Assembly: GCA_964442455.1 (NCBI GenBank)
Contig: CAYTZB010000005.1
Coordinates: 5,152 to 69,151 of the forward strand
Source of the DNA: an uncultured Gammaproteobacteria bacterium
Lineage (GTDB): Bacteria > Patescibacteriota > Microgenomatia > UBA8517 > JACQJR01
Direction: 5' to 3'
Length of the DNA stretch: 64,000 bases
How positions within the stretch are numbered: the first letter of the stretch is position 1; the number at the start of each line of letters is the position of its first letter. Shown here one piece after another: positions 2,651 to 50,583 of this stretch. Position numbers and translations under genes: made by a program. The notes beneath the pieces are model-generated. The model saw nothing but the letters and a program-made list of their open reading frames with translations, made no database searches and was not told where the DNA came from.

Positions 2651-3465
2651 CGTAAGAAAATTCTAATTAATTCAGGGATTGTAAATATTAAAAAAATTGC
2701 AAATGAAATTTGCACCATTTTTTTCTGCTTAAATTTAAAATTGTTAATACCGTGAATGATAATTACCGAAAGAGGCAACCATAAAAGAAAATCGTTTCTG
2801 TCAAAAATTTGGAGTATAGACAAAGATAATAAAGAACCCACGAGAAGAATTACTACAAATTTACAATATTCATGTTTACCCAAGTAATAAAAGCCAAACA
2901 AAAGAAAAATAATACCTAAGAATGGGAATTTATTTAAGTTTTGATTATCTATTAAAATTTCTCTTGGATGAAAGTTAAAGAAATAATTATTGGGGTCAAC
3001 GAGAGTAAAAAAATTATTATTGAATTTATTGATAAAAATACGCGGTTTATTCTGGAAAAATCTCGCTGTTTCAACTGTGGGGTAAAGATACCCTTTACTT
3101 ATAACCTCCTGCTGGGCCTCATAATCGGGTTGGAAAATTGTCTGCCCCCAAAAAGGTTTCCAGTTAACAAATAAGACAAGAAGTGAAAACAAAGCAAAAA
3201 TTAAGTTTCTCTTTTCCCTGTCAAGAAGGTAAATAACAAAAACAACTATTAAGGGAAATACAGCAAGTTTTGGTTCTATAAATGGAATTGCAATAAGCGG
3301 TAAGGGATAGAAATTAACTTTGTATTTTAACAAGAAAAAACTTAATGCTACTAGAAAAGCCGGTATCGCATATCTAGCAAAATCACTGGAGATGTTAGAT
3401 AAAAACAGACTTAATGGCCAAAATACAAGGCATGAACTAATAGTTATAATTTTTAACTTATTCAT
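2647..3465 (-). CDS. Hypothetical polytopic membrane protein
   Basis: 272 aa, hydrophobic throughout. 4-nt overlaps with both neighbours suggest translational coupling within the glycosylation operon. Confidence 0.45.
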   Translation of the reverse strand: MNKLKIITISSCLVFWPLSLFLSNISSDFARYAIPAFLVALSFFLLKYKVNFYPLPLIAIPFIEPKLAVFPLIVVFVIYLLDREKRNLIFALFSLLVLFVNWKPFWGQTIFQPDYEAQQEVISKGYLYPTVETARFFQNKPRIFINKFNNNFFTLVDPNNYFFNFHPREILIDNQNLNKFPFLGIIFLLFGFYYLGKHEYCKFVVILLVGSLLSLSILQIFDRNDFLLWLPLSVIIIHGINNFKFKQKKMVQISFAIFLIFTIPELIRIFLR

Positions 3466-34816: not shown

Positions 34817-37800
34817 TTATTCGCGGGGACGACGGGGCCAAAAAACCAAAGCACCAATAACTACTATAAGAATTACACCGAGGGCGAGTAAACGATTACC
34901 AGAAAGCCGTTCAAGTAATCCGCCCTGTTCTTCCCCAACAGGAGTTGGTGCCGCCGAAGGTGTCGGAGTTGCTTCTCCTCCCAAAATCTCACCCTCGCTT
35001 GGTTCTTCTTTCGGTAAAATCTTTACCTCTCCAACACCACCAGCAACTGCCCCAGTAGTCGTTGCGGCCGACGCCAGCACTGCTCCGGCGGTAACCTGTG
35101 CCTCTTGATCAGCAACTATGCCTGAGCCATTTCCTGCATGGTCAACTGCCCGCAGAGCGTAAAAGTATGTCTTTCCACTCTCAAGGCCAAAATTATCCCA
35201 TGACATTTGCTGGTCAGGTGCTCCTCCTACCTCTCCCACTTTAGTTCCCCCATCAGCTGTAAACTCCGGTTTATCCGAGCGGTAAATAAACACTCTGCTG
35301 AAATCAGAATCGCCCGGGTTTTTCCAGAAAAGACGGTAGCTTGAGTCAGAAGGTCTTTCCTTCCTGTACTCTTGAACTCCTGATGGTCCTGAGTGGTCAA
35401 AATTTGTATTGGTCTCGTCAGCAGAAGTATCCGCTCCGCCAGTCACCTCAACTCGAAAGATATATTTCCCTTGACCGTCATAGAAATCAGCGCCTGTTAC
35501 CAAAACTTTATTGGTTGCGCCAGTTGTTGAGGAGTTAACCAAACTTCTAAATGTTCCACCATCCTTCTTGACGAAGAAGTTGGCTGTTACAGAATCGCCC
35601 TCTATGTCAAGCGCAGTATAGGAGATGTAGAAAGTATCTGTATTGGTGTAGGAAGGCAAGTCGAGTATATCAACGGTCACTGCCGCTTTGGCTGGCGAAA
35701 CCTGTGCAACAAATATGAAGAGCAACAGTACAACTACGCTACCCAAAAACTTTTTCCAAAGACCACTCTTTTTTGCTCTTCCTTTTCTTCTTGGTGCAAG
35801 TGCCAGGCCGAGGCGTCTCAAACCAAATCCTGCTCCCAAGAGGAAGCCAACATATACAAGCCAGACAGTATTAGCACCGGCTGCCGGAAGTTCTGTTACT
35901 GCAGCAAGCACTTGTGGCTGGTGAATATCGTATGAGATGAAGACACCCTTTCCTATCGGGACCGATGAACGGACAATATTACTTTGGAATGTGTCACTTC
36001 CCGTACCCTGGGCAAAGGCAAGGTTTGTGTGGGTACCGGCATGAATATCACTTGCAATAACCGCCTTATAGGTAACAGTCAAGGATGCAGTGCCAGCAAT
36101 ATCTCCAAGATTATTCCAGGTTAAGATGTTGCCTGAGACTGAGTCGGGGTCAGCAGGCGTTCCTGTCAAAGGAATAAATGTAAATCCGCTAGGCAAGACA
36201 TCAACTAATCTGACATCATGCAGTGTTCCACCACCGGTATTGGTAATGACCAATGTATATGTGACCACATCCGAACCAGAAGCACTGGAGGTATGGTCAT
36301 TTGTCTTGGTAAGCGAAATGCCAGGAAGTAATTTTTGGTTGGTAAAGGTACAAGTGACACCATCTGTGGTCAAGTTCACAACAATCTCATTGGTAGTACC
36401 GCTTGTCTCGTCCGAACAACTCCAGGAAACTAAGCCAAATTCTTCTTGTAGGTCTTCTGAAATTGTATAGCTTTCGGTTGGTAGGGTGCGGGTTTGGCCT
36501 GTCGCAATATTCTGCTCAACACCTGCTATATCCCATGTCCAGTTAGTTGCGCCAATTATGTCTTCTTCATCATTCAAATCGCCGTCTCCATTTGCATCCA
36601 CGTTCTTGAGAACAGTCAAATCTCCTGTATCCCGCGCATTACAGAGAGTAATCTCGGCACTCTGGTCTTCTTCTACTGTTATGCTTGCTGGGAGTTCTGC
36701 ATTTTCTGGATCCTCACAAGTTCCTTCTCCCTCAAACCAACCAACGAAGTGGTAACCAAGAACATTATTTTCTGAAACATCGTATGTTCCTGTATCAAGG
36801 GGACCAGCACTTTCTCCCATTTCTCTTTCCGGTGTTTCCTCATCAATTCCCCAACGGAAGCCCAGTTCATTTGCTACATCATTATCGCCCTCAAAGCTAC
36901 CGTCACCGTTGGTATCTACTTGTTTATTGACTACGATTTCTCCAATATCACGGGTGTTTGTAATCGTGCAGGTTACATCCTCACCCTCATCAAGGATAAC
37001 TGTCCCACCAAGCACTTCTGGGCATTTCTCGTCTCCGGTAATTGATGTAAAGCTGTAACCTTCTAGCCCGTCCTCGTCAATTGCGATTGGAGTATTCGCA
37101 TCAACCTCGGTTGCAAAACCAGATAATACTCCTATGTCATCAACCAGGAGACCGAAATCGTCTGGGTCTGCATTCCCGCCAATAACTTCTTTAATAAGAG
37201 TAATTGTTGGAATAATATCATCGTTGGTTATGGTACAAGAGATATTTTCTCCTTCATCCAAGGTAACTGTTCCACCAAGAGTATTTGGACACTTAGCATC
37301 CCCTGTAATAGATACAAAGTTGTAGCCGTCAAGAACAGTCTCATTGATTGTGTGAGGTTGATTGGCAGAAACTTGGGTTGTGGAACCCGATAAGACAACG
37401 TTCCCATCTATTGTTGGGTCAAAATCGTTAGGCTGCGCATTACCACCGTTATTATTTACAACAACCTTAGTAAGTGTAATGGTTGGACCAACATCGTTGT
37501 TTGTGATAGTACACGTAATACTTTCTCCTTCATCAAGAGTTACAGTTCCGCCAAGAATTTCTGGGCATTTTGCATCTCCTGAAATCGAAACGAAGGAATA
37601 ACCTGTTAGTCCAACTTCGTTAATTACTATTGGGGTATTAGCGGAAACCGTGGTTGTAGCTCCGGACAAGACCGCTGAACCACCAACTGAAATTCCAAAA
37701 TCGTCTGAACCTGCATTACCTCCATTATCATTGATTACTTCCTTAATTAAGGTTATGGATGGAGCTATATCATCGTTGGTTATAGTACAAGTGACGCTTT

Positions 37801-40800
37801 CTCCTTCATCCAAAGTTACTGTTCCTCCCAACTGAGTGGGACATCCTTCCCCTGCTATAGAAACGAATTCGTAACCGGTTAAACCAGCTTCGTTGATTGC
37901 AACTGAAGTGTTGGCGTCAACTTCTATTGTTTGACCAGAGGTTACAGGAACGCCTCCTATTGTAAGTCCAAAATTGTTTACGCCGGCATTTCCACCATTA
38001 TCGTTGATTACGTTCTTGATAAGAGTAACTGTTGGACCAACATCATTGTTTGTGATAGTACAAGTTTTGGTCTGCCCAAAAGCAATCGTGCCTGAACAAT
38101 CCTGGGATAAGCTCTTGGTATAGCCTGAAACTGAATCCTCATCAACGCTGTAAGACCCGGCGTCCAGCGTGACTGTAGTTCCATTTTCATCACCTTGGAA
38201 CGAAGAGTCGCTTACATTGGTTCCGGTAACATTTATATTAAAGTCACTCGCAACGTTATCTCCGCCGTTGTTATTAATTACGTGTTTAATAACAATTAAT
38301 TGTGCGGATACCTGTTTGTTTGTTACGTAAACATTGAAAGTTCCACCGCTTGAGACTGTTACAACCCCTCCATCGCTTATTGAAACTAGCTGATAACCAG
38401 TTGGTGCTGTAGCTTCCGTTATAGTGTATGTACCGGGTCCCAAATCAGGGTAAGTTGCATCTGTTCCTTCTGCAATAGCCTTTGGAGTGCCTCCGTTAAG
38501 CAACGAAGTAAACTCTGTTGAATTTGAAACATCTGTAGTCCCATCTGTGCCAAGAACGTTTTTATGAACAATAATTTGAGCGTTTTGGAAGTTTACGAAA
38601 GTGAAAACGTAGTTGCTGCCGCTTGTTGCTTGACCAAAACTGTGGGTTGTATCGCCAAGATTTGTCCAGCCTCCCGGGGTCTCTTCTGAAACTCCGTATG
38701 TGTGCCCCGGGCCCAAGTTTGTCCATGTATAACAACCATCTTCTTCGGTTGTTTGAGTATCGCTTACTTGACTATCAACCAAAAGTTTAACGGTCCAACC
38801 AGATTTATTTGTCTGGTCACCCGTAGTTCCTATATCTCCATCAGCGTCTATTACCTTACAAGCTTTAACGCTTACATTCTTAAAGTTTATAAAGTTTTGC
38901 TCTGTAACACTCCCACCTGGAGTAAGGGTGACGTTCTTGAAAACTGCAGTTAACGCCGTCCAACCAGCTTGTAGAACTTCTTTTACTTGATAATAGCCAG
39001 GAATAATACTCGAGAAACTATATGAACCGTCTGAAGCTGTATTTATGGTTTGAGATAAGACACAGCCGGTAAAGTCTGAAGCACAACTCCAAAGCTCAAT
39101 CGCCCAGCCAATTAATCCTGTCTGGTCGCCGCTAGTCAATAGACTTCCATCTGTGTCCTCAAATTTAAATCCTGAAATAGAGCCTACATTTTGATAATTG
39201 ACAAACGTGATGATTAGATTTTGATTACTGGCAAGAGTTTGAGTTGTCCCATTACTGGCGTTTGTATCATTATCCGGGTTTATATTATTTAGGGTATAAC
39301 CTGCCGTCACTATTTCTGAAAATGTGTACGTGCCGGGGGCAAGGGTATAAACGGCATTAAGACCCTCGTGGAAATCTTTATTATCTCCGCCACCTCTTTG
39401 AACTACGAAATTTGTGCTATCCAAGACATCATTCCCATTTGGATCGCGGACGTCTTTAACAATGGTTACAATAGCGTTCTTTTGCTTGTTTGTACAAGTA
39501 ACAGTTATAGTTCCGTTGCTGGAAACGGTAACTTGAGCTCCGTCTCCGGGAGTTTGGTTTGCGTCCGGAGTACAAGAAACATAAGTGTAATTTGAGTCTT
39601 CTACTTCTGTAATCGAGTAGCTACCCGGATTAACAGGATAGCTAGCAGTCAGGGTTTCTGAGAAGCTTTGATTATTTGCCCCATTTAGTTGTGCTGTAAA
39701 GGCATGATTATCAGAAACATCCGAGCCATCCGGAGCACGAACATCTTTAACAACGTTAATGGTTGCTTTCTTTTGCTTGTTGACAACATTAACGGTTTGC
39801 TGCTCGCCAGGCCCAACAACAACCTGTGTACCACCAGCACCCGTGTCTTCGTCTGGTGTGATGCTTACCAAATCATAATCCGGATCAGGACTTTCAGTTA
39901 TTGCGTATGTTCCTGGGACAACCGTGAATACGCCGTTGTCACCCTCCCCAATTTGGTCTGACTGACTGCCAACATTGACTGTGAATTGATGTGTATCTGA
40001 AACCTCTCCGCCATCTGGATTAAGAACATCTTTAATTACTGTTATGGTCGCATTTTGCTGGCGGTTGACAACGAATACATCTGTAGTTTGTCCCGGAGTA
40101 ACCGTCACTTGGGCACCGCTTGTCCCCCCATCATTATCCGGAGTAATACTGAATAAGGCATAACCTGTTGGCGGGGTATCCTCTGTAATTGTGTGTGTAC
40201 CTGCGGTAATGTCAGTGTAAGTAAAAGTTTCCCCGTCGGTGAGGAATTGAGGATTGGCACTGTCTAGTCTGACCGTAAAGTTTTGAGAAGTATCGGTTAT
40301 CGCTTCACCATTTGGACCCTGAACATCTTTATGAACAATAATTGTTCCAGTGTTTAGGGCGTTATGAAAGGTACAAGTGGCGTTAGTTGGCGGTTTACCT
40401 GCGGCTACTGTGGCAGTAGCTGTCGAACCATTAAAGGTGCAACTTGTGCCAGTACCACTTGCAAACGTATAGCCTGCGGGGCCACTTTCGGTAACGGTGT
40501 AATTCCCATCAGGAGAAACATTGTTAATGGTCACAGAGTTTTGACCTGGAGGTATGGGGTAGACTGATTGCCCATTAATTGCCGGTGTAATGGTAAACGA
40601 CCACTGATCAGAAGTTGCGCTACCACTATCCACAATCTTGCTCAATGTAATCGAAGGTAACTGCAGTAATTGGTTGACTGGGATCGGAATATTTTCTTGA
40701 CCACCCTGGGCTGTTCTTATACTCATCGAAGAACCATTAAACTGACTTGCATCCAAACCCAGTCTGCCGCAGAAAAGCATGTAAACAGTATTATGGGAGG

Positions 40801-41974
40801 GAACATTCGACAAGATTACATTGTAATGACGCAAAGAATCGGAACTGCTAATTGGAGTTGTACCATCATTATTACCACCGAATGGACCCGAGACTGTTGC
40901 TGGCACCGTTCCACCACTACTTTTTACGAAGCTCGTGGATGATGTAAAGTCGCTACCAGGGTAGGAAAAATCATTTAAGTTATCAGCCGAGGATCGGGGA
41001 TTACCGCTTAACCCAGTCGTGATTTGTTCTAGATGGTCGATACCGATAACACTATTTTGGAAATCATACACAGGACTGACGATAATATCCCCATCAGTAT
41101 TGTCATTGTTTTTGACTTCAATCTCAGTCGGTATACATGCCCCTTCTGGATAGGCACCAACATTACCGTTTTTAAGTTCCCCTGTTCCGGTTGGCTGGCC
41201 ACTAACAAGACTATAGACGCCAGATAAGACAAAACCGAACATACTGATTGCCACTTTGTTGTCTGGAATAGTAGAATCCGTAAACGTGGTTGTTGCCAAA
41301 ACTGACGCACCCAGCAGTACTTCAACCAGATAGCTTCCCTGTTGTCCTTCGCCGCGGAGAGGGTATAGATAAATAAAGGAACCATTTTGGTCGGTTGTTA
41401 CCGTATCGGATGAACCTATATTACCTTCCGCATCTCGAACCTGCCCATCTGGCCAGGTTACACGAACAGTTAAGTTAGAATTTGTTGGGAAATTGGAACC
41501 GGTTATTGTAACTGTATCCGAAGGAGAATAATCCGCTTTGTCGGTTGAAAGAGAATAGTTAAGTTGTGCGCTTGGCTCGCTTTCTTGTTGTCCTAGATCA
41601 AGTTGAGGGGGCCCGGTAGTGGTTTGCGGACTTACATCGTTTGCTTGGACTAAGACCTCCCCTGAAAGAACGGGTGGTTCGGAATTGTCTGGTGTGGGAG
41701 TTGGTAACAAAACCTCAGGTGTTGCGGTAACTTGCGGTGTAGGCGTTAAGGAAGGATCTGGCGAAACCGTAGGGTCTGTCGTTTCACTCGTTATTGACGG
41801 TGAATCTGTTGGGGCTTCTGTCGGAGCAATTGTTGCTTCGGGGGTTGGTGTTGCACTTTCCGCAAAAACTACTCCCGGCGCCAAAAGAACCGGCGCCCAA
41901 GAATTAAGCAGTAGGGAGACCGTTGCTACTATAGACAAAAACTTAGATAGTCTTCGGCCAAGTTCTTTTCTCAC
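34817..41974 (-). CDS. Giant (2385 aa) secreted multi-domain surface protein. It has an N-terminal signal/TM, a Ser/Thr/Pro-rich stalk, tandem Cna-B/SpaA-type and DUF11-like beta-sandwich repeats (about 95 aa each), an internal LPAAG sorting-signal-like module, an FN3-like domain and a C-terminal TM anchor.
   Basis: Cna-B-like 'SDGSYSFSSIIPGYYQVKEVLQAGW' is present. There are four near-identical repeats 'VINDNGGNAG..DFG..VGG..VLSG.TT.V.AN....INE.GL.GY.F.SI.GD.KCP..LGGTV.LDEGE..TCTITN'. The FN3-like segment is 'YRLFWKNPGDSDFSRVFIYRSDKP...GKTYFYALRAVDHAGNGS'. The C-terminus is 'LLALGVILIVVIGALVFWPRRPRE'. Confidence 0.8.
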   Translation of the reverse strand: MRKELGRRLSKFLSIVATVSLLLNSWAPVLLAPGVVFAESATPTPEATIAPTEAPTDSPSITSETTDPTVSPDPSLTPTPQVTATPEVLLPTPTPDNSEPPVLSGEVLVQANDVSPQTTTGPPQLDLGQQESEPSAQLNYSLSTDKADYSPSDTVTITGSNFPTNSNLTVRVTWPDGQVRDAEGNIGSSDTVTTDQNGSFIYLYPLRGEGQQGSYLVEVLLGASVLATTTFTDSTIPDNKVAISMFGFVLSGVYSLVSGQPTGTGELKNGNVGAYPEGACIPTEIEVKNNDNTDGDIIVSPVYDFQNSVIGIDHLEQITTGLSGNPRSSADNLNDFSYPGSDFTSSTSFVKSSGGTVPATVSGPFGGNNDGTTPISSSDSLRHYNVILSNVPSHNTVYMLFCGRLGLDASQFNGSSMSIRTAQGGQENIPIPVNQLLQLPSITLSKIVDSGSATSDQWSFTITPAINGQSVYPIPPGQNSVTINNVSPDGNYTVTESGPAGYTFASGTGTSCTFNGSTATATVAAGKPPTNATCTFHNALNTGTIIVHKDVQGPNGEAITDTSQNFTVRLDSANPQFLTDGETFTYTDITAGTHTITEDTPPTGYALFSITPDNDGGTSGAQVTVTPGQTTDVFVVNRQQNATITVIKDVLNPDGGEVSDTHQFTVNVGSQSDQIGEGDNGVFTVVPGTYAITESPDPDYDLVSITPDEDTGAGGTQVVVGPGEQQTVNVVNKQKKATINVVKDVRAPDGSDVSDNHAFTAQLNGANNQSFSETLTASYPVNPGSYSITEVEDSNYTYVSCTPDANQTPGDGAQVTVSSNGTITVTCTNKQKNAIVTIVKDVRDPNGNDVLDSTNFVVQRGGGDNKDFHEGLNAVYTLAPGTYTFSEIVTAGYTLNNINPDNDTNASNGTTQTLASNQNLIITFVNYQNVGSISGFKFEDTDGSLLTSGDQTGLIGWAIELWSCASDFTGCVLSQTINTASDGSYSFSSIIPGYYQVKEVLQAGWTALTAVFKNVTLTPGGSVTEQNFINFKNVSVKACKVIDADGDIGTTGDQTNKSGWTVKLLVDSQVSDTQTTEEDGCYTWTNLGPGHTYGVSEETPGGWTNLGDTTHSFGQATSGSNYVFTFVNFQNAQIIVHKNVLGTDGTTDVSNSTEFTSLLNGGTPKAIAEGTDATYPDLGPGTYTITEATAPTGYQLVSISDGGVVTVSSGGTFNVYVTNKQVSAQLIVIKHVINNNGGDNVASDFNINVTGTNVSDSSFQGDENGTTVTLDAGSYSVDEDSVSGYTKSLSQDCSGTIAFGQTKTCTITNNDVGPTVTLIKNVINDNGGNAGVNNFGLTIGGVPVTSGQTIEVDANTSVAINEAGLTGYEFVSIAGEGCPTQLGGTVTLDEGESVTCTITNDDIAPSITLIKEVINDNGGNAGSDDFGISVGGSAVLSGATTTVSANTPIVINEVGLTGYSFVSISGDAKCPEILGGTVTLDEGESITCTITNNDVGPTITLTKVVVNNNGGNAQPNDFDPTIDGNVVLSGSTTQVSANQPHTINETVLDGYNFVSITGDAKCPNTLGGTVTLDEGENISCTITNDDIIPTITLIKEVIGGNADPDDFGLLVDDIGVLSGFATEVDANTPIAIDEDGLEGYSFTSITGDEKCPEVLGGTVILDEGEDVTCTITNTRDIGEIVVNKQVDTNGDGSFEGDNDVANELGFRWGIDEETPEREMGESAGPLDTGTYDVSENNVLGYHFVGWFEGEGTCEDPENAELPASITVEEDQSAEITLCNARDTGDLTVLKNVDANGDGDLNDEEDIIGATNWTWDIAGVEQNIATGQTRTLPTESYTISEDLQEEFGLVSWSCSDETSGTTNEIVVNLTTDGVTCTFTNQKLLPGISLTKTNDHTSSASGSDVVTYTLVITNTGGGTLHDVRLVDVLPSGFTFIPLTGTPADPDSVSGNILTWNNLGDIAGTASLTVTYKAVIASDIHAGTHTNLAFAQGTGSDTFQSNIVRSSVPIGKGVFISYDIHQPQVLAAVTELPAAGANTVWLVYVGFLLGAGFGLRRLGLALAPRRKGRAKKSGLWKKFLGSVVVLLLFIFVAQVSPAKAAVTVDILDLPSYTNTDTFYISYTALDIEGDSVTANFFVKKDGGTFRSLVNSSTTGATNKVLVTGADFYDGQGKYIFRVEVTGGADTSADETNTNFDHSGPSGVQEYRKERPSDSSYRLFWKNPGDSDFSRVFIYRSDKPEFTADGGTKVGEVGGAPDQQMSWDNFGLESGKTYFYALRAVDHAGNGSGIVADQEAQVTAGAVLASAATTTGAVAGGVGEVKILPKEEPSEGEILGGEATPTPSAAPTPVGEEQGGLLERLSGNRLLALGVILIVVIGALVFWPRRPRE
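35750..35900 (-). other. Internal sortase-signal-like module within the giant ORF: LPAAG, then a hydrophobic segment, then a basic patch RRLGLALAPRRKGRAKK. It is immediately followed by a signal-peptide-like segment KKFLGSVVVLLLFIFVAQVSPAKA-AV.
   Basis: Translated directly from the sequence. No stop codon or frame change occurs between the two parts. A sortase gene lies directly upstream at 42031-42681. Confidence 0.55.
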
Positions 41975-42030: not shown

Positions 42031-42681
42031 TTAATCAATTGCTACTTTTTTTGAAATAACAATTAACCTCTTAAGTGTCGTTCCCGGAGGATAACAAGTT
42101 TGTAGAGTGAGCATTTCCTCTTTATTTTTGGTATTGCGAAGATATTTAATGTCCGCCGAAGGAACAACTTTTTTCTCAACAACCTCATATTTGAATCTTT
42201 CTCCTTTATAAAAAATATCAATCTCGTCTCCCTTCTCAAGTTTTCCGATAAGATAAAACACGGCGTTGTAGCGACCAACATTTAGGAAACTATCGGTTGA
42301 GTGAGCAAAAAGATAAACGTTTCCCTCCTCACCCGGCAAGGCAGTACCCTTTGCATGAGCTACGCCGCTCTTTAACACGGAAAGATATTCTGACTTGTTA
42401 AAGGGATTAACATTGGCAAAAACCGGTGCGTTGGCGGCAAGTTTGGGAATTACTATTCCAAAATCTGTGCTCGCGGGGGTAATTTGGCGGTCGGAGGAAA
42501 AGGGTTCAACTGAGTATTTTATCTGAAATAGTTCATTAATCTTATACCCAATTTCTTCTTTTATTGCCGGCCCAAAGGTAAAAATAAGCATTAAAACTGC
42601 ACCGACTATAAAGAGATTACCCAAAAACATAAGAGCTCGAGCCAGGAAAATAATTTTTCTGTTTTCAGCTTTAGTAGCCAT
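42031..42681 (-). CDS. Sortase (transpeptidase) with an N-terminal TM anchor
   Basis: His is in 'GNVYLFAHS', the catalytic Cys in 'LTLQTCYP' (TLxTC motif), and Arg in 'RLIVIS'. The ORF-track start (42933) overlaps galE by 263 nt. The internal ATG at 42681 (MATKAEN..., TM 'IIFLARALMFLGNLFIVGAVLMLIF') is preferred. Confidence 0.7.
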   Translation of the reverse strand: MATKAENRKIIFLARALMFLGNLFIVGAVLMLIFTFGPAIKEEIGYKINELFQIKYSVEPFSSDRQITPASTDFGIVIPKLAANAPVFANVNPFNKSEYLSVLKSGVAHAKGTALPGEEGNVYLFAHSTDSFLNVGRYNAVFYLIGKLEKGDEIDIFYKGERFKYEVVEKKVVPSADIKYLRNTKNKEEMLTLQTCYPPGTTLKRLIVISKKVAID

Positions 42682-43651
42682 TAGGATTTTGTTTATGCCA
42701 AAGATGGGCAGTTTTGACAATGGTTTCAAGATCAGAGTGTTTTGGTTTCCAACCAAGCTCTTTTTGAAGTTTTGAAGAGTCGGCAACAAGTTCTGCCGGA
42801 TCCCCTTCTCGGCGTGGGCCCACTTTAACGGGAAACTCACCCGCAACTTTTTTGACCATCTCAATAACTTCACGATTTGAATATCCTTGGCCGGTACCGG
42901 CATTATACGCCGCACACATTTGACCACTTTCAAGAGCCTTAAGTGCCAGGATATGTGCTTCTACTAAATCCAAAACATGAATATAGTCGCGGATGCACGT
43001 TCCGTCTTTTGTTTCGTAGTCGTCCCCAAAAAGAGTAAACTCGCTTTTCGACAACGCTGCGCGTATCGCAAGGGGGATGATATGGCTTTCGTTTTTATGA
43101 GCTTCACCCAGTGAACCATCTAACGCCGCACCTGCTGCATTAAAGTAACGAATACTAATTGAGTTTATCTTGTGGATTTGGTGGTACCAATGGAGTAACC
43201 GCTCAATCATCACTTTCGTCTCTCCATATGCGTTTGTAGGGGATTGCGGGTGCTCTTCTGGAATTGGGATTTTGGTTGGATTACCATATACTGCAGCACT
43301 TGAGGAAAACACAAACTTGCGTATACCTGACAGCGCGCATGTTTCAATTAAATGAAAACTACCCTCGACATTATTCTTAAAGTACTTTCCGGGATTCTGC
43401 ATTGATTCACCGGCTTGAATGAACGCGGCAAAGTGCATAACCGCCTCTATTTCATTTATTTGAATTGTCTTTTCAATTAATTGTCCTCCAGTTACTAAAT
43501 CTCCTTCTACTACCTTTACTTCTTTTGGGATTGCCTCTTTGTGGCCTTCTGAAAAATTATCAAACACCACAACAGAATGCCCTGCATCTTTCAAGGCACG
43601 AACCGTAAAACTCCCAATATATCCTGCTCCGCCGGTAACTAGAATGTTCAT
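42671..43651 (-). CDS. galE: UDP-glucose 4-epimerase GalE
   Basis: 326 aa. 'MNILVTGGAGYIGS', the YxxxK motif and the remaining sequence have the GalE profile. Confidence 0.85.
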   Translation of the reverse strand: MNILVTGGAGYIGSFTVRALKDAGHSVVVFDNFSEGHKEAIPKEVKVVEGDLVTGGQLIEKTIQINEIEAVMHFAAFIQAGESMQNPGKYFKNNVEGSFHLIETCALSGIRKFVFSSSAAVYGNPTKIPIPEEHPQSPTNAYGETKVMIERLLHWYHQIHKINSISIRYFNAAGAALDGSLGEAHKNESHIIPLAIRAALSKSEFTLFGDDYETKDGTCIRDYIHVLDLVEAHILALKALESGQMCAAYNAGTGQGYSNREVIEMVKKVAGEFPVKVGPRREGDPAELVADSSKLQKELGWKPKHSDLETIVKTAHLWHKQNPNGY

Positions 43652-44049: not shown

Positions 44050-45075
44050 TTAGATACCTTGGTTATTGATGAAGTCGCAAACACCCATCATCAAAAGTAA
44101 TTGATTTCTTGTTGGATTTGTCAAAGTTACCCCAGTAGCTTTTCCTTCTATAGCAGTAATTACATCCCCTAAACTGACTGTTGGCCCGCTCAAACCCAAA
44201 TAACTGGCTGCCCCTGAGGGTAAACTAGATACATTATATATGTGAGCCAGTGATTTTCTTCCAGAAGCCACATTTAGACGCAGAGCTAGATATTGAGCTT
44301 TAAACTTTAGTGCACTACACGAACGTTGACTACCTTTACAACCGGTGGAGTTTTTAATTAGATTAACCAAACCTGTTGTATTAATACCGTAAGTAGTAGT
44401 TATGCCCAATTGAGGAAACCAATCATTGATTAACCAACCTGAATCGGTATTGATAGTTGATATCCACCCATTAATATCTCCTTGAGAATAAGTATTATGT
44501 CTATTCCAATTTCTCCAAAAACCAATTGTTCCTTCAAATTCCACTACAGAGCCAAAAGTTAAGTCAAAAATTACTGATTTGGCTTGAAACTCATTGCCAG
44601 CTCCTGGTGGAAAAGTTACCTTGAAATTATAAACTTTGTGTTCACTGGGGCCAATTAGACTAAGTGTCACTCCATCTATACTTATCGAATCATTGAAAAA
44701 ATCAGCCAAAGTCTTTGCCCCTGTTGGACTACCACTGCCATAAACAGGTGTTGACCCATCCTTAATAACAATATCCAAAACCGTTTCTAGTTTTGGATCA
44801 TCCCCCACACCTCCAGTTCTAATACCTTTGACTGCCACCAAAATAGCATCACTGCCACTGTTGGTTACATCAATGTCTCTGTCCTCCATATCCCCTGGAG
44901 TCATGTTCGTTACCACAAAAATCGGATCGCCTATAGGAACATGGAAATCAACAATTAAACTCCCAAATGCTTTCACTGTTGAGCTCTTAAGCGGGAATTT
45001 ATAAGCCGTCGCAAATACTACCAAAAATGCAGCGAGCGAAACTACTGTCAATATTCTCATTACATATTTTTTCAT
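44050..45075 (-). CDS. Secreted/cell-surface protein, hypothetical (N-terminal signal anchor; possibly SipW-processed)
   Basis: 341 aa. N-terminus is 'MKKYVMRILTVVSLAAFLVVFATAYKF'. Gly/Thr-rich. Sits directly downstream of the SipW-like peptidase. Confidence 0.35.
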   Translation of the reverse strand: MKKYVMRILTVVSLAAFLVVFATAYKFPLKSSTVKAFGSLIVDFHVPIGDPIFVVTNMTPGDMEDRDIDVTNSGSDAILVAVKGIRTGGVGDDPKLETVLDIVIKDGSTPVYGSGSPTGAKTLADFFNDSISIDGVTLSLIGPSEHKVYNFKVTFPPGAGNEFQAKSVIFDLTFGSVVEFEGTIGFWRNWNRHNTYSQGDINGWISTINTDSGWLINDWFPQLGITTTYGINTTGLVNLIKNSTGCKGSQRSCSALKFKAQYLALRLNVASGRKSLAHIYNVSSLPSGAASYLGLSGPTVSLGDVITAIEGKATGVTLTNPTRNQLLLMMGVCDFINNQGI

Positions 45076-45076
45076 A

Positions 45077-46267
45077 TTAAATTCCTGGTGTCGGTGGATC
45101 TCGATTTACAAAATCAGCGTTCGTATTAGTGTCAATTCCATCTGGATCCCTTTCATGGGAAATTCCCGCTGACGTAGCCGCTGGAATCGATGGGTTTAGG
45201 CCATTAGTATTGGAGCCCCAGCTAATATGATCAACAATTAGCCCTGATGAAGGACAAACTCCACTTCTTAACGCTAGCTCATCATTATTGGCTAAGCCAT
45301 TACCAATTGATGATGGGGCAACAATGAAAACAACGCTGCCATCAGTTGGAACTGCCGTCCAAACCGCCCTAAACTCAGCTTCTGTGTGAGTAGAAACAAT
45401 CGCAAATCCATTTGAAGGTATAGAGGCATTGGGCATGTTGTCACAACTGGTGTTATCGGAAATAGACCAGTTGGCTAGACTCACAGCGGTACTTGTTGGG
45501 TTGTAAAGCTCGGCCCATTCTGAATCAGCTTCGCTACCAATTCGATGGGCTTGAGCAATTCGATAGTAGACTTCATTTATGACAATGTCATTAATACTCG
45601 GAAATTGTCCGGCAGTAAAAATATTATTCGTACTTGATCCGGAATTTGAGAAAAAGGCATGGGAGTTTTGGATAAATGAACCACTTATAATAAGGGGAAT
45701 AAGAATAACAAGACTATTTAAACTCACAGAAGGTGAAAATGAGCCTTGAGATTTCCCGCGTTGCCTTCTAATTTCTTTAAAGATATTTACAACTTCCAAA
45801 ACAATTACAAGTAATGCCGGGAAAATAACAAGAAGTGGAAAACCAATATTCGACTTAGTAAAAGCAAAAAGCCTTCCTATATACGGCAAGAGAAATATTG
45901 CTTTTCCGACAACCTTCTCTTCCGCTACTACTCCATTATCCGGCGCATTATTCGCATCTCCTTTTGTTTGATAAAACAATTTCCCCTCTTTTGTTTCAAC
46001 AGCAACAATTCTGTGTGTTGTAAGAATTTTGGGATCCTTCTCGCCTTTAAAGGCAACAATATCACCTTCTTTGTATAGTAGTAACCCTTCACCTTTGGAA
46101 TTGACGACCACAAGATCACCGACTTTAATCGTCGGTTCCATACTTCCTGAGCGAACAATCAATGCTTTATTATCAAACCAAGGAATGGCCACGAACGCCA
46201 ATCCTACTGCTACTATTACAAGCAGCACTGATACAACATAACTAATACTTTTTAAGAGCGTATTCAC
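45077..46267 (-). CDS. Archaeal/ER-type signal peptidase I (SipW-like) fused to a C-terminal lamin-tail domain (LTD)
   Basis: An N-terminal TM then 'IVRSGSMEPTIKVGDLVVV' carry the SPase I catalytic Ser box and 'GD'. The C-terminal 'INEVYYRIAQAHRIGSEADSEWAELYNPTSTAVSLANWSISDN' is an LTD signature (NEV.Y...EW.ELYN...L.GW.L.D). Confidence 0.65.
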   Translation of the reverse strand: MNTLLKSISYVVSVLLVIVAVGLAFVAIPWFDNKALIVRSGSMEPTIKVGDLVVVNSKGEGLLLYKEGDIVAFKGEKDPKILTTHRIVAVETKEGKLFYQTKGDANNAPDNGVVAEEKVVGKAIFLLPYIGRLFAFTKSNIGFPLLVIFPALLVIVLEVVNIFKEIRRQRGKSQGSFSPSVSLNSLVILIPLIISGSFIQNSHAFFSNSGSSTNNIFTAGQFPSINDIVINEVYYRIAQAHRIGSEADSEWAELYNPTSTAVSLANWSISDNTSCDNMPNASIPSNGFAIVSTHTEAEFRAVWTAVPTDGSVVFIVAPSSIGNGLANNDELALRSGVCPSSGLIVDHISWGSNTNGLNPSIPAATSAGISHERDPDGIDTNTNADFVNRDPPTPGI

Positions 46268-46364
46268 ATAACCCTTTCTTTCGACAATCGAACCTCCAAT
46301 CTATAACTTCAATCTAACCGCGCATCCCGAAGCCCTCCGGACCCTCCGGAGGGCTGTACGTGAA

Positions 46365-46967
46365 CTACTGTGACAGATTTTGATGACCTACAAACGTAAA
46401 CGTTTCTGTAATTGACTTTCCTTGGTAGGTATCATCTGCATCCTCATCAAACTCGAAGGTCAGACATAGGTATCTAGTTTCACCCGACACTATTGCCGAA
46501 AAAGGCAAATCAAGATCCGTTGTGTTCAGAGCAGCTAAAGTTGTAAAGCTACCAGTAATATCATCTGGATCATCGGCGCAGGTTGAAACGGAATCAATTT
46601 TAGCGGACGTGATATTCAATTGAGTAGCTAGATCTGGAGAACTTGAAACGGTCTCTGTTGCTCCTAAGTTAACTTCTGCAATATCGATCGAACCATCGTT
46701 GTGCATAGATACAAACCCAGAAGTAGTATCACCAGGTGCCATATCAGCATCTCCGAACGAGGCATCAATTGTGGCAGCAGGCGTTATGTCGTCGTCATCG
46801 TCTAGCAGAAGAACAAGATCACCACTAGCAAATACGTTGTCAGTACTTGTTGCTGTGCTTGAGAAAAACGCAAATGTTGAGCCGACAATTAATGCTCCTG
46901 CGGCGGCAATTGACGCAAGACTTAATGCAATTCGTGAATTAATTGCAAAAGGCATAATTTTTATCAC
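46365..46967 (-). CDS. TasA/camelysin-family-like secreted protein with a SipW-cognate-class signal peptide
   Basis: 'RIALSLASIAAAGALIVGSTFAFFSSTATSTDNVFASGDLVL' matches the SipW-dependent signal peptide pattern (...ALIGGGTFAFFSDTE.S.N.F.AG.L.L). The remainder is Asp/Thr-rich. Confidence 0.6.
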   Translation of the reverse strand: MIKIMPFAINSRIALSLASIAAAGALIVGSTFAFFSSTATSTDNVFASGDLVLLLDDDDDITPAATIDASFGDADMAPGDTTSGFVSMHNDGSIDIAEVNLGATETVSSSPDLATQLNITSAKIDSVSTCADDPDDITGSFTTLAALNTTDLDLPFSAIVSGETRYLCLTFEFDEDADDTYQGKSITETFTFVGHQNLSQ

Positions 46968-46995
46968 CTCCTTTCTGCCCTCAAAAGGGCTCTTA

Positions 46996-47030
46996 TATAA
47001 AATAAACTCCGCGGTTTATAGCGGAGTTAA
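46996..47030 (-). terminator. Rho-independent terminator downstream of the metzincin gene
   Basis: On the minus strand, AACTCCGC-tataaacc-GCGGAGTT (8-bp stem) is followed by TTATTTTATAT. Confidence 0.5.
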
Positions 47031-47256
47031 CATGGAAACTATAAGTTTGTTGTATGCAAAACAGGATTGGCAGAGTAATATCTTCATAAAAATGGGCAGA
47101 ATAGATAAGGAGGGCAGGAGGTTTTTTAAGATTTTATGGTCTTTTTTAGGCTATAGGGTACGGATTATATTGTCAAGATGAACAAAAGTAATCAAAGAGG
47201 TTTAAAATGGGTCAATCATTCCTGAGAAATATTACGTAGTAAGAGGTAAATATTTT

Positions 47257-48009
47257 CTAGTTACTACAACCTGGCCCGGGAGATGTATTTCCAGTGGAGT
47301 AAAGTACATCCATACCTAATTTATCCCCTAATCCTAAAGTTCGCTTCTGGGTTTCTCCAAGACCAGCAAATCTATAGGAAGTTAGACAACCATCTTTAGG
47401 GGCATTCGTATGATCAAGTCCCGCAACATGAAGCCATTCATGGGTAAGAGCATTTTGAACATCATAAGTTGTTGGACTGTCCCCAACTGACCATGGCTCA
47501 GATGTGTCAATTGTTATAACAAAACCGCCTATTTCCTTTGTCGCAACATTACGACAAACACGAGCGGAAGCAAGAGCGCCACCCTCTCCATCAATTGCTG
47601 TCCATTGAACAGTATTTGGATCCCCAGTACAGAGGTTTTCTTGAGCGGTAGAATCGTCCCGACTAAATTCACGAGTGATTATAAACCCATCAACTATATC
47701 TTCTGCATCAACAATCGCAGTATTACCCCCACTTACCGCTTCTGTTCCTGTAATCTTATACTCAACCATACCACCAGCAAACCATTTAATCCCCCCTTGC
47801 GTTAAATGAAAACTATTAGATTCTGTAGTCGGATGAGGACCAGGACCAGCATGAGTATCAGCTCCATAATCCACAAATACCTCTTCAACCCACTGCAGAC
47901 TGGGGGCGGTGACTCTTTTAGACGGAGCAGCAGAAGCAGGAAAGACAGCGAGAATTAAAAGGGTAAAAGCTACTATAGCAGTTGTTATTTTGCTAACACT
48001 AAAACTCAT
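47257..48009 (-). CDS. Secreted zinc metalloprotease, metzincin type (matrixin/snapalysin-like)
   Basis: 250 aa with a signal peptide. 'HEWLHVAGLDH' is the HExxHxxGxxH zinc-binding motif. Confidence 0.7.
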   Translation of the reverse strand: MSFSVSKITTAIVAFTLLILAVFPASAAPSKRVTAPSLQWVEEVFVDYGADTHAGPGPHPTTESNSFHLTQGGIKWFAGGMVEYKITGTEAVSGGNTAIVDAEDIVDGFIITREFSRDDSTAQENLCTGDPNTVQWTAIDGEGGALASARVCRNVATKEIGGFVITIDTSEPWSVGDSPTTYDVQNALTHEWLHVAGLDHTNAPKDGCLTSYRFAGLGETQKRTLGLGDKLGMDVLYSTGNTSPGPGCSN

Positions 48010-49160
48010 GGAGCGGTGGGGAGACCAAAACCGGCGTCGGGGTCATCGCCTACTCTTCCAATATCTGCATAGTTGTTGAGCGCTCTATTTTGAAGATAAG
48101 TCCTGGTTGCTGCAGCCGTCCCTTGCCATACTTTGGCAGAAAGACCGGCAACATGAGGGGTTGCCATTGAAGTACCAGAGATAGTGTAATAACACCCATT
48201 TTTCCAAGTTGACTCAACCGAAACTCCTGGTGCCGCAAATTCTATATCGCGCGCTTCTACCACATATGGGGTAGTGTTGTAGTTGTTACCGCGTGAGGAC
48301 CAGTTGGCAATTGCATCGCTTGAATTTATTGCACCAACCGCTACCACATTCGCAAGCGCGGCGGGATAAAGAATTGTGTTATCCGCTGGCCCACTATTTC
48401 CCGCTGCTGCCACAATGAGCACTCCTTTGCCAACTGCATAATTAAAAGCATTTACCTCATCTTGTGTTATTGAAGATCCCCCAAGACTTAGGTTAATAAT
48501 ATTCGCTCCGTTGTCAGCTGCATAGCGAACACCCCTGGCAATATCATCACTCCAGCATAAACCTCCGTTTGAGCATACCTTAATAGCCATAATCTTGGCA
48601 GCGGGCGCAACTCCCAAAATTTTCCCATTGGCTGCAATCGTGCCTGCCACATGGGTACCGTGCCCGTTCCCATCACTACATCGAGCGAGAATTGTTGAGT
48701 ATTGTGCATCGCGGCAATCAACAATGTTGTTTTTCAAATCCGGATGGTCTTTCTTAACACCGGTATCAATAACCGCTACTTTAATTCCACTTCCCGAGCC
48801 TGCCTGACCACCGTTCACCTTCGAGATGCCCCATGGTGTCTGGGTAGATGGTGAACAAGTTGCTTGAGTTTCACGATGGGAAGCGACAGAGGGAACTTCA
48901 AGAAGTTGCCACTGACTCGCCATTCCGCGGAATTCTAAATTGGGGTTTGTTTGTAATCGCTCTATAGTTGAAATGGGTGCTTCTATAGAGAAGACACCAT
49001 CACCAAAGTCATGATGAATATAACGGGAGATTGAAGTTAAAGCTGTGGGAGACGTAACTTTAAAGTACGCCCGACCAATTTCTTGAGCTTGAACGCTGGA
49101 GAGGATTGTTCCTGCAAAGAATGCAACTACAACCGCAAAGATAATGAGGAGTTTTTTCAT
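48006..49160 (-). CDS. Subtilisin-like serine protease (S8 family), secreted
   Basis: 384 aa with a signal peptide. The catalytic triad motifs are 'VAVIDTGV', 'HGTHVAGTIAA' and 'GTSMATPHVAG'. Confidence 0.85.
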   Translation of the reverse strand: MKKLLIIFAVVVAFFAGTILSSVQAQEIGRAYFKVTSPTALTSISRYIHHDFGDGVFSIEAPISTIERLQTNPNLEFRGMASQWQLLEVPSVASHRETQATCSPSTQTPWGISKVNGGQAGSGSGIKVAVIDTGVKKDHPDLKNNIVDCRDAQYSTILARCSDGNGHGTHVAGTIAANGKILGVAPAAKIMAIKVCSNGGLCWSDDIARGVRYAADNGANIINLSLGGSSITQDEVNAFNYAVGKGVLIVAAAGNSGPADNTILYPAALANVVAVGAINSSDAIANWSSRGNNYNTTPYVVEARDIEFAAPGVSVESTWKNGCYYTISGTSMATPHVAGLSAKVWQGTAAATRTYLQNRALNNYADIGRVGDDPDAGFGLPTAP

Positions 49161-49175
49161 TACGGTATCTCTACT

Positions 49176-49631
49176 TTACACCAGCATAGATTCTGTGTCA
49201 AGCATTATTTTGCGGCTATTTTCATCAAATTGCTCAAAATTAATCCAAATAGTACTTTTTGGAAGAAATCTTCTTATCTTTTCCGCCCATTCAATTGCAA
49301 TAATATTCTCCTGTTTCCCCCAAATCTCACCAAATCCCAAACCTTTAATTTCATGCTCAATATTTTTTTCTAATCGGTAAAGGTCCACATGATAGAAGTG
49401 GGTGATTGGGTTATTGGGTGGCTGGGTAACTAGGTAATGGCGCATAATTATGAACGTTGGTGAGATAACCCTTTTTTTAATTCCCAAACCTTCTGCCAAT
49501 CCTTGGACAAATGTCGTCTTCCCGCTTCCTAACTCTCCCACCAGCGCCAAAATCTCACCGCCTGAAAGTTTCCGTGCAAATCTTTTCGCAACTCTCTCCG
49601 TTTCCTCTGATGAATTTGTAACAATTTCCAT
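49176..49631 (-). CDS. tsaE: tRNA t6A37 biosynthesis ATPase TsaE (YjeE)
   Basis: 151 aa. 'GEILALVGELGSGKTTFVQGL', 'SPTFIIMRHY' and 'HVDLYRL' are TsaE motifs. Confidence 0.8.
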   Translation of the reverse strand: MEIVTNSSEETERVAKRFARKLSGGEILALVGELGSGKTTFVQGLAEGLGIKKRVISPTFIIMRHYLVTQPPNNPITHFYHVDLYRLEKNIEHEIKGLGFGEIWGKQENIIAIEWAEKIRRFLPKSTIWINFEQFDENSRKIMLDTESMLV

Positions 49632-49637
49632 AGTTCT

Positions 49638-49663
49638 GTTTTAATGTTTCGAAACATTAAAAC
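49638..49663. promoter_or_regulatory. Perfect 26-bp palindrome GTTTTAATGTTTC|GAAACATTAAAAC, 7 nt upstream of the tsaE start (copy 1 of 3)
   Basis: Read directly. The core TGTTTCGAAACA is shared with the copies at 50564-50589 and 51087-51110. Confidence 0.6.
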
Positions 49664-49686
49664 AATCATCAGCCCAATGTTTCTTC

Positions 49687-50583
49687 TCACTCTTTATCGG
49701 TATCAGTTAAATTTATAGTTTTTCTCTCTCTCATAAACACAATTGTCGTCCCAACAAGAAAACTTAGTCCTGTAATAATAAAGATTACAGGCAAAACAGG
49801 CAATTCTTTGAACCAACCGCCTATTTTTGTTTCCTCTCCTAGTGTCGGTGAAGGAGAAGAAGTTTGTCCCTCTTGCAAACCAAGTACAATTGGCTCTGAT
49901 GTTGGAGAAGGAGAATTTTTTGGGCTGGCCGTTGGCTTTGGCGTAGGAGTCTTTGTAGGAGTTGGAGTTTTGGTTGGGGTGGGAGTAGGTGTCTTTGTGG
50001 GCGTCGGTGCAAGAGTCTGCGAGGGGGTTGGGGTTGGAGAAGGAGTGGGAGAAGGTGTGGGTGTTTGAGGTATAGAGTTAGTCGATCCTTTAGTTGCAGT
50101 TTGTAAGATTGAGAATATCCCTGTACGATCAGGACTCCTCCCTATCGATATACCGTCACCAGGATTCGAAGTATACTGGTACTGATCAACAATCGCCCCA
50201 GAAGAATCAAAAAGCACCACATGATCCCATTCTCCGGCGCTGTTGGCACTGTTGTTTAAAAAGGAATCCATCTCTATAAAGGGGTATGTCGTGCTCGTAG
50301 TAACAAGATCAGCCAAGACTTTCTTGGTGCTACTCCCAGTATCGGTTGTAAAATCCGTATCGTCATCAAGCCAATAGGACTTTAAGAATTCAGCACTACT
50401 TGATGCATTATAAAACTCAACCCACTCAGGATTCCCATCAACCAAAAACTCATTTATCACCACCTGTGCAAAAGAATTCGTTGGGAAAACCAACCAAAGA
50501 ATAAAAAATAAACCTAAGGAGAAAACTGCTTTCGTTAAACCAAAGATAACTATATTCAATTTTGTTTTAATGTTTCGAAACAT
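49687..50583 (-). CDS. Lamin-tail-domain (LTD) cell-surface protein with a Pro/Thr-rich linker and a C-terminal TM anchor
   Basis: After the signal peptide, '[22 protein letters not shown]...YWLDDD' is an LTD. Then comes '(PTPS/PTKT)n', about 70 aa of low complexity, then '[24 protein letters not shown]'. Confidence 0.6.

Follow-up and report, generated by a model that had tools for sequence, protein, structure and literature searches.

What does the minus-strand gene cluster at positions 44050-50583 of this stretch encode, and how far does it extend? The stretch, called here the window, comprises 64,000 nucleotides of contig CAYTZB010000005.1 from an uncultured bacterium of the Patescibacteria, or candidate phyla radiation (CPR). 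An earlier note, made from the sequence alone, saw in 44050-50583 a single surface-fibre or matrix secretion unit: a SipW-like signal peptidase carrying a lamin-tail domain (LTD), two secreted proteins of TasA type, a metzincin, a subtilisin and a second LTD protein. The six open reading frames (ORFs) that it named are all present on the minus strand at the coordinates it gave, and the motifs that it quoted were found as well. A genuine sipW-tasA-type module is indeed present in the window, as supported by family matches and by a recurring gene triplet, and the conserved part is limited to three co-directional genes at 44050-46967. This shorter segment is probably the Patescibacteria counterpart of the tapA-sipW-tasA fibre operon, with a peptidase that would be fused to its own substrate. 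The module contains the following features.

46365..46967, minus strand: major subunit, a TasA/Peptidase_M73 homologue (PF12389, TIGR04088, TasA profile and fold match)
46809..46868, minus strand: post-cleavage motif FFSSTATSTDNVFASGDLVL of the major subunit (alignment A1; the alignment of the hidden Markov model, HMM, to 5of1 starts here)
46332..46354, minus strand: GC-rich stem-loop GCCCUCCGGAGGGUCCGGAGGGC (folding of the 70 nt after the stop)
45770..46267, minus strand: SipW-type signal peptidase I domain of the endoplasmic reticulum (ER)/archaeal class, aa 1-166 (TIGR02228, SEC11A/C alignment)
45605..45742, minus strand: internal signal-peptide-like segment of the fusion, aa 176-221 (motif HMM, hydropathy)
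45080..45598, minus strand: lamin-tail domain, immunoglobulin (Ig)-like, aa 224-396 (PF00932)
44542..45075, minus strand: N-domain of the minor subunit, aa 1-178, a signal peptide with a divergent TasA-like beta-sandwich (hhalign)
44053..44532, minus strand: C-terminal 'domain X' of the minor subunit, aa 182-341 (helices of the AlphaFold2, AF2, model)

The module was compared across 80 related loci from species-representative genomes, together with extra fetched loci; 82 non-redundant loci were counted, and all their six-frame ORFs were scored against purpose-built HMMs. The peptidase is fused to an LTD in 27 of the 82 loci, and in another 20 it is unfused with an LTD ORF immediately downstream. 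A co-directional ORF with the signal motif or an M73 domain lies upstream in 62/70 loci, and a protein with the N-domain follows the peptidase in 48/63. Because the triplet recurs in dozens of independent assemblies, the module is far beyond chance. Co-occurrence across relatives had been proposed as a check on the whole cluster; the association of the peptidase with TasA-like or motif-bearing neighbours recurs, whereas the M10 and S8 protease genes of the window do not.

The major subunit, 46365-46967, had been compared with TasA on the basis of its N-terminus. Its homology to TasA is now supported by HMM, by a profile match to TasA in the PDB and by the predicted fold, which all agree. Peptidase_M73 (PF12389) matches at 54.1 bits against a gathering threshold (GA) of 22.5 and covers profile positions 2-192 of 196. 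In the same way, a profile made from alignment A1, which contains 38 CPR homologues, matches B. subtilis TasA (5of1/8aur) with an E-value of 1.6e-11 from the donor-strand region through the C-terminus. The TasA-like jellyroll that was to be looked for in this protein was also recovered at the level of structure: the AF2 model (mean predicted local distance difference test, pLDDT, 82, with an N-terminal strand of low confidence in the monomer) has as its top and sole significant Foldseek match in the PDB the TasA fibre 8aur, determined by cryo-electron microscopy (E 8.1e-7, TM-score 0.55/0.48). The protein nevertheless scores below the Bacillus TasA equivalog NF046066 (21.6 bits vs 450). The CPR M73 profile matches AbpX chains weakly (E 0.09-0.15).

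The SipW-cognate signal read in this N-terminus is present too. The sequence contains ALIVGSTFAFFSSTATSTDNVFASGDLVL and TIGR04088 matches aa 17-51 with 26.8 bits (cutoff 19). The ORF as listed starts at GTG 46967 and encodes 200 aa; a ribosome-binding site, GGAGGTG, lies 7 nt ahead of ATG 46955, which is most likely the true start, missed in the earlier note, and would give a protein of 196 aa. Cleavage by the SipW-type enzyme is predicted between A33 and F34 (TFA before the cut and FF after it, in the 200-aa numbering). The segment that would follow, FFSSTATSTDNVFASGDLVL, aligns in A1 with the N-terminal donor strand of TasA (B. subtilis residues 28-47) and may play the same role here.

The window is 99.9% identical to the NCBI contig JACPFY010000005 of GCA_016182755.1. 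At position 9610 of that contig, 85 bp (window 46659-46743) are missing inside the TasA-like gene, which is split into 89 + 99 aa; the gene of the window is intact and aligns over its full length with its homologues. The difference reflects either a fault of assembly or variation within the population. In several other loci (L009, L012, L015, L017, L018, L020, L024, L025 and others), one or two larger proteins of 300-500 aa replace or accompany the TasA homologue of about 200 aa upstream of the peptidase. They carry the SipW-type signal motif (30-50 bits) with little or no M73 HMM signal and form further uncharacterised substrate classes.

The gene that follows, 45077-46267, begins with a signal peptidase of the ER/archaeal type, as had been deduced from its SGSMEP box (aa 40-45). 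TIGR02228 matches aa 8-160 with 108.9 bits (cutoff 51.85), and alignment with human SEC11A/C (E about 1e-10) matches the catalytic residues. These are S42 in SGSMEP, H85 in THRI and D104/D110 in TKGDANNAPD, which make a Ser-His(-Asp) enzyme and not a Ser-Lys enzyme as LepB. Loss of the Ser/His dyad had been named as a possible refutation; S42, H85, D104 and D110 are invariant in the 21 homologues compared, which share 38-64% identity. The domain consists of a first transmembrane (TM) helix at aa ~9-29, the catalytic part and a second helix at aa ~137-166. It scores 107.7 bits with the Bacillus SipW equivalog NF046067, under the cutoff of 190, and is therefore termed a SipW-type enzyme and not an orthologue-level match. 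An identical peptidase is deposited from GCA_016182755.1 as 'signal peptidase I [Candidatus Microgenomates bacterium]'. No LepB-type peptidase was found in the 64-kb window or in the fetched loci with B. subtilis SipS as the query.

The fusion of this peptidase to an LTD had been taken as a peptidase with an additional domain. The LTD does lie in the same ORF (PF00932, 41.2 bits over aa 224-351, GA 34.3); the whole is better read as a peptidase joined to an LTD-bearing substrate that has a SipW-type signal of its own. By hydropathy the protein has three hydrophobic segments, at aa 1-34, 137-166 and 176-200. The loop between the second and the third, KEIRRQRGK, is basic, with five K+R against one D+E in aa 164-182 (+4), and by the positive-inside rule the LTD is predicted to lie outside the membrane. 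The third segment runs into SHA followed by FFSNSGSSTNNIFTAGQ (core: SHA, then FFSNSGSSTNNIFTAG) and then into the LTD, with a predicted cut between A204 and F205. This is the same motif as TFA followed by FFSSTATSTDNVFASG at the end of TasA-like signal peptides.

Because TIGR04088 missed the internal segment, a lineage-specific HMM of CPR TasA N-termini was used with shuffle controls. It gives 22.1 bits at aa 203-221 of the fusion, with a maximum of 8.5 over 2400 shuffles, and 85/120 homologues reach at least 15 bits. In most fusions the motif stands 4-27 aa ahead of the LTD; S212 and N215 do not vary, and all 21 fusions compared have A or S at position -1. Of 7269 other ORFs from 83 loci, 55 score at least 10 bits, and the top 45 are all co-directional and upstream of or beside the peptidase. 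Moreover, stand-alone LTD proteins (P0024, P0060, P0065 and others) have an N-terminus made of Met, basic residues, a hydrophobic run and this motif, as in an ordinary SipW-type signal peptide. Since the LTD protein elsewhere is a separate gene with the motif in its own N-terminal signal peptide, the fusion is probably a peptidase plus a substrate that it releases by itself. The LTD motif resembles the substrate motif slightly but significantly more within a locus (0.562) than between loci (0.528), a value reached by 18 of 10000 permutations, and this likeness would fit two proteins that have a peptidase or a groove in common. The LTD protein may then act as a TapA-like fibre initiator or anchor, by analogy of layout. 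No TapA model in NCBIfam or Pfam matched it, and it is the layout only that is shared. Of note, in two loci (L026 7965-9029 and L031 8001-9032) the C-terminus of the peptidase ORF weakly matches domain X (23-26 bits) with no LTD, which suggests that various passenger domains can be fused to the peptidase.

The stop of the peptidase gene and the start of 44050-45075 are 1 nt apart (TAA-T-ATG). This next product had been listed as a second secreted protein, in line with its N-terminal hydrophobic signal segment (aa 3-29). Pfam and NCBIfam library scans gave no match to it, and its TasA-type fold is only partly borne out. The N-terminal half is linked to the CPR M73 profile by hhalign (A4, the N-domain alignment: probability 98.4%, E 9e-15, 168 columns); it stays below the PF12389 threshold (14.1 bits vs 22.5), 10 of 24 family members match weakly (best E 1e-4), and TasA is not among the top 50 Foldseek matches of the AF2 model (pLDDT 88.9) in the PDB. 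With this caveat the N-domain appears to be a divergent TasA-family domain. Its family counts 573 cluster representatives in a library of 1.84 billion proteins.

The C-terminal domain X is all-alpha and about 160 aa long, with AF2 helices over 182-337 and two invariant Cys. Six sequences share 37 invariant columns and the signature EGTIGFWRNWN...C..C...INNQGI. It has no family in Pfam or the PDB, its profile giving a weak helical match to TolC only (E 0.0085), and Foldseek found nothing for it in the PDB. In most homologues of 44050-45075 its position is held by an LTD or by RTX repeats. Domain X also ends SpaA/SdrD_B-type repeat proteins (P0135, P0190, P0194, P0182); it is an uncharacterised mobile module found at the C-terminus of CPR surface proteins.

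A further conserved element lies between the major-subunit gene and the peptidase gene. The stem-loop GCCCUCCGGAGGGUCCGGAGGGC, perfect and GC-rich, starts 10 nt after the TasA-like stop codon, and the 70 nt after this stop fold at -24.3 kcal/mol. Averaged over 62 loci, the folding energy of the 70 nt behind the gene that precedes the peptidase is -24.8 kcal/mol, compared with -11.4 after 370 control genes and -11.8 after the last gene of the module. Values of -24 kcal/mol or lower are found in 60% of loci and 7% of controls (Mann-Whitney p 1.4e-23). The hairpin has no U-tract and is therefore not a canonical intrinsic terminator. It is proposed to be an attenuator or an mRNA-stabilising element favouring the major subunit, a bias that would parallel the TasA:TapA ratio of about 100:1 given in PMC10151520.

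The analysis shows the homologies and the conserved gene order, together with the catalytic residues, the internal motif, fused as well as unfused forms and a conserved hairpin, and the following course of events is proposed from them. The major subunit would be exported via Sec and cut after TFA by the peptidase. The new N-terminus, FFSSTATSTDNVFASG, would serve as a donor strand and polymerise the beta-sandwich subunits into fibres as in Bacillus TasA. The peptidase gene would carry the next substrate in frame, as a third hydrophobic segment, SHA with FFSNSGSSTNNIFTAG and the LTD, and the enzyme would free this protein, acting either in cis or in trans. Since a donor strand followed by a complete Ig-like fold is the layout of TapA, the product would start or anchor the fibre. 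The third, translationally coupled gene would supply the minor subunit, a divergent TasA-like domain with a variable C-terminal module and a candidate tip or adhesin. Finally, the stem-loop probably sets a high ratio of major to minor subunit expression. A broader version of this model is put forward more tentatively: many CPR bacteria might possess a self-processing peptidase-LTD polyprotein, from which a freed or membrane-positioned LTD nucleates and anchors fibres with swappable tips (LTD, RTX, domain X) in a stoichiometry set by the stem-loop, and such fibres would be a second appendage besides type IV pili, possibly for attachment to hosts or surfaces.

Several points weigh against the operon with a peptidase fused to its own substrate. 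The window fusion has no TIGR04088 match in its internal segment, and of five stand-alone LTD proteins only two reach 14-16 bits, still under the cutoff of 19. With the lineage-specific HMM, 12/28 fusions remain below 10 bits. The covariation of motifs within loci is small and could reflect lineage effects. The description of the peptidase as 'dedicated' rests on co-localisation in the loci covered. For the model of 44050-45075, the Foldseek matches in the PDB are generic beta-sandwiches at E 1e-3 or weaker with TasA outside the top 50, and the A4 profile has no match among PDB sequences; because neither search gave a link, the relation of the N-domain to TasA depends on one profile-profile match. 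The stem-loop at 46332-46354 lacks a U-tract. Lastly, it is we who infer cleavage, donor-strand polymerisation, the roles of the LTD protein and the minor subunit, and the function of the hairpin.

Some of these points would suit an enzyme that keeps its LTD. The LTD would be a permanent, uncleaved extracytoplasmic domain that tethers the peptidase to the wall, the S-layer or its substrates, and the motif would be the leftover of a third anchor. Such a fusion is frequent (27/82 loci and more than 100 database proteins), its motif is degraded in the 12 low-scoring fusions of 28, and TIGR04088 misses the internal segment of the window. SipW of B. subtilis itself is reported to have a second, C-terminal function in biofilm control. 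Nevertheless, the invariant S212 and N215 and the small -1 residue in 21 fusions are not what a mere anchor would lead one to expect, the unfused orthologues are secreted in the ordinary way with this very signal, and the motif covaries, weakly, with that of the cognate substrate. A permanent LTD is thus considered unlikely, and release of the LTD protein by the peptidase is preferred.

A different doubt concerns the nature of the M73 proteins, which could be camelysin-like metalloproteases, or soluble or antimicrobial secreted proteins, the module then being a peptidase with its private substrates. The Pfam family is named for a metallopeptidase, homologues go at JGI under the names 'ribosomally synthesized peptide with SipW-like signal peptide' or 'spore coat-associated protein N', and it is by deduction that the proteins of this locus are held to polymerise. 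On the contrary, the 200-aa sequence contains no HExxH or other zinc motif, its homology to TasA covers the fibre-forming fold from end to end, donor strand included, its closest structural match is 8aur, a fibre form, and the operon encodes two more proteins with related N-terminal strands, as in the pair TapA/TasA. This alternative is accordingly held to be improbable.

The limits of the module are the last issue, and here the earlier note went too far. Its cluster is continued upstream of the major-subunit gene by these features.

47005..47028, minus strand: terminator-like hairpin in the gap between the M10 gene and the TasA-like gene (terminator scan, fold z-score)
47257-48009, minus strand: secreted M10 metzincin, outside the module (PF00413)
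48006-49160, minus strand: S8 subtilase, outside the module (PF00082)
49176-49631, minus strand: TsaE, outside the module (PF02367, 121.9 bits)
49687-50583, minus strand: protein with an LTD, a proline/threonine (PT)-rich stretch and a C-terminal TM segment, outside the module (PF00932, 43.5 bits)

The proteins themselves had been recognised correctly. The metzincin motif HEWLHVAGLDH (HExxHxxGxxH) is present in 47257-48009 (PF00413, 34.4 bits), the subtilisin domain in 48006-49160 is a strong match (PF00082, 195.5 bits), and the second LTD protein has its LTD at aa 36-138 (GA 34.3), a PT-rich stretch and a C-terminal hydrophobic segment (aa 258-285). What had been overlooked is TsaE, a housekeeping gene of tRNA modification inside the proposed cluster. 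The proteases were counted within 7-8 kb of the peptidase in the 36 loci whose flanks reach 7 kb or more on each side: M10 was found in 0/36 and S8 in 3/36. L003, L004 and L005 have flanks that bear no relation to the window, and no other locus compared has an equivalent LTD-PT-TM ORF at the corresponding position. This protein has an ordinary signal peptide (NSFA before the cut, QV after it) and scores -1.5 bits with the TasA-type motif HMM. The hairpin at 47005-47028 has a U-rich tail and a fold z-score of -3.3, with 0/200 shuffles equally stable, and it marks the upstream boundary of the module. Since the neighbours do not recur, the flanks are unrelated, the hairpin forms a boundary and the peptidase gene is joined to the next gene at 1 nt, the module is taken as 44050-46967. 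The M10, S8, TsaE and LTD-PT-TM genes are neighbours and not components.

That 44050-50583 forms one unit, with the M10 and S8 proteases maturing or remodelling the fibre and the LTD-PT-TM protein anchoring it, is thus very improbable: the genes are co-directional, secreted or membrane-bound and within 6.5 kb, the peptidase fusion and the anchor-like protein each have an LTD, and an S8 gene lies within 8 kb in four other loci, but the synteny (M10 0/36, S8 3/36, wholly different flanks in L003, L004 and L005) largely refutes it, TsaE interrupts the cluster, a terminator-like hairpin lies behind the M10 gene, and the LTD-PT-TM protein is without a SipW-type motif. The metzincin, the subtilisin and the second LTD protein should therefore not be annotated within the fibre system. 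The M10 and S8 genes overlap by 4 nt (ATGA, 48006-48009) and thus make a translationally coupled pair of secreted proteases of their own. Rfam and tRNA scans of the window found nothing, and a sigma-70 promoter scan gave 14 hits against 17.9 expected from shuffles, which is not above expectation, so that no promoter is claimed.

A sortase was also considered as a part of the module and rejected. It occurs in 8/36 loci within 7-8 kb of the peptidase, no module protein ends in a sorting signal, and it is assigned to a neighbouring surface-protein locus. In the window the sortase gene (42031-42933) adjoins a giant adhesin of SpaA/CLIPPER type, an arrangement that is syntenic in the closest relative. 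This protein of 2385 aa (34817-41974, minus strand) has a sortase-like sorting signal at aa 2029-2070 (motif at 35876-35890), consisting of LPAAG, a hydrophobic stretch and RRKGRAKK. Beyond it the same frame continues for ~310 residues with a signal-peptide-like beginning and a terminal TM helix. The giant ORF represents either a pair of genes with no stop codon between them or a protein with an unusual internal sorting signal. In the same closest relative (L086), a PIN/RHH toxin-antitoxin pair (3255-3897) sits between the module and a TsaB-like gene, the flanks being otherwise syntenic.

Several loci carry the CPR-type module on contigs with other labels. Three are labelled as archaea, namely L082 (Nanoarchaeia archaeon), L074 (Thermoplasmata archaeon) and L030 (archaeon), and in L082 the motif protein, the peptidase and the N-domain, at 144 bits, were found together. 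Many others are titled 'uncultured Gammaproteobacteria/Pseudomonadales'. Mis-binning or mislabelling of contigs from metagenome-assembled genomes probably explains the archaeal and proteobacterial names; transfer to DPANN archaea could also account for the archaeal labels.

The closest known system is the tapA-sipW-tasA operon of B. subtilis. There, TasA polymerises by insertion of its N-terminal strand (residues 28-38) into the next subunit, and TapA, which has an N-terminus near-identical to that of TasA and a complete Ig fold, donates the first strand (PMC9674648, PMC10151520). Both operons encode an ER/archaeal-type peptidase between its substrates, a TasA-homologue major subunit with a SipW-cognate signal and a conserved post-cleavage strand, and an accessory protein in which a TasA-like N-terminal strand precedes a complete Ig-like domain, as in TapA. 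Nevertheless, the CPR order runs from the major subunit through the peptidase to the accessory proteins. The accessory Ig-like domain is of the lamin-tail type and not the TapA fold, and in about a third of loci the protein that bears it is joined in frame to the peptidase. Moreover, the CPR loci, whose host is a CPR bacterium, have a conserved stem-loop behind the major-subunit gene and a third component, in which a divergent TasA-like domain is combined with a variable C-terminal module. The equivalog cutoffs drawn for Bacillus lie far above the CPR scores, both for SipW (107.7 vs 190) and for TasA (21.6 vs 450).

In the sipW-tasA-calY locus of B. cereus, SipW likewise stands beside two TasA/camelysin paralogues (PMC4292775), whereas the second CPR paralogue is highly divergent (below the Pfam threshold) and is extended by a further domain at its C-terminus. 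Bacillus lacks the peptidase-LTD fusion. In parallel, the AbpA/AbpB bundling pili of Pyrobaculum are built of TasA-like jelly-roll subunits by donor-strand assembly (PMC9245690), as would be the CPR fibres. In these pili a TapA-like partner was proposed to give the first strand and to carry distal adhesive domains, and the operon is without the dedicated signal peptidase of the CPR module (PMC9245690). The CPR proteins are much closer to bacterial TasA than to the archaeal AbpA/AbpB. Finally, the CPR enzyme shares its catalytic fold and its Ser-His-Asp residues with SEC11-type signal peptidases (7p2p, 7p2q), from which it differs in standing alone outside any complex and in having a C-terminal TM helix and a substrate extension.

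The claim that such a unit was not described for this kind of organism holds in part. Patescibacteria are among the phyla with PF12389 homologues in Wang et al. 2022 (PMC9245690), and NCBI names some CPR homologues 'TasA family protein'. Full-text searches on TasA in Patescibacteria, or on LTDs with TasA or a signal peptidase, gave no account of the operon, the fusion or the hairpin, and all three were absent among the top-listed matches of broader searches on SipW/TasA or CPR. TasA homologues in Patescibacteria are thus already known; the CPR operon, the peptidase-LTD fusion and the hairpin appear to be new.

CPR bacteria, or Patescibacteria, are mostly uncultured, tiny and probably episymbiotic. 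To our knowledge, the way in which they attach to hosts or surfaces is largely unknown beyond type IV pili. The fusion of a peptidase to its substrate would provide a natural single-polypeptide reporter for the cleavage specificity of SipW-type enzymes, and it is a possible case of a signal peptidase freeing its own fused passenger. Compact and widely conserved, the TasA-type module is a testable candidate for a second adhesive appendage of CPR bacteria.

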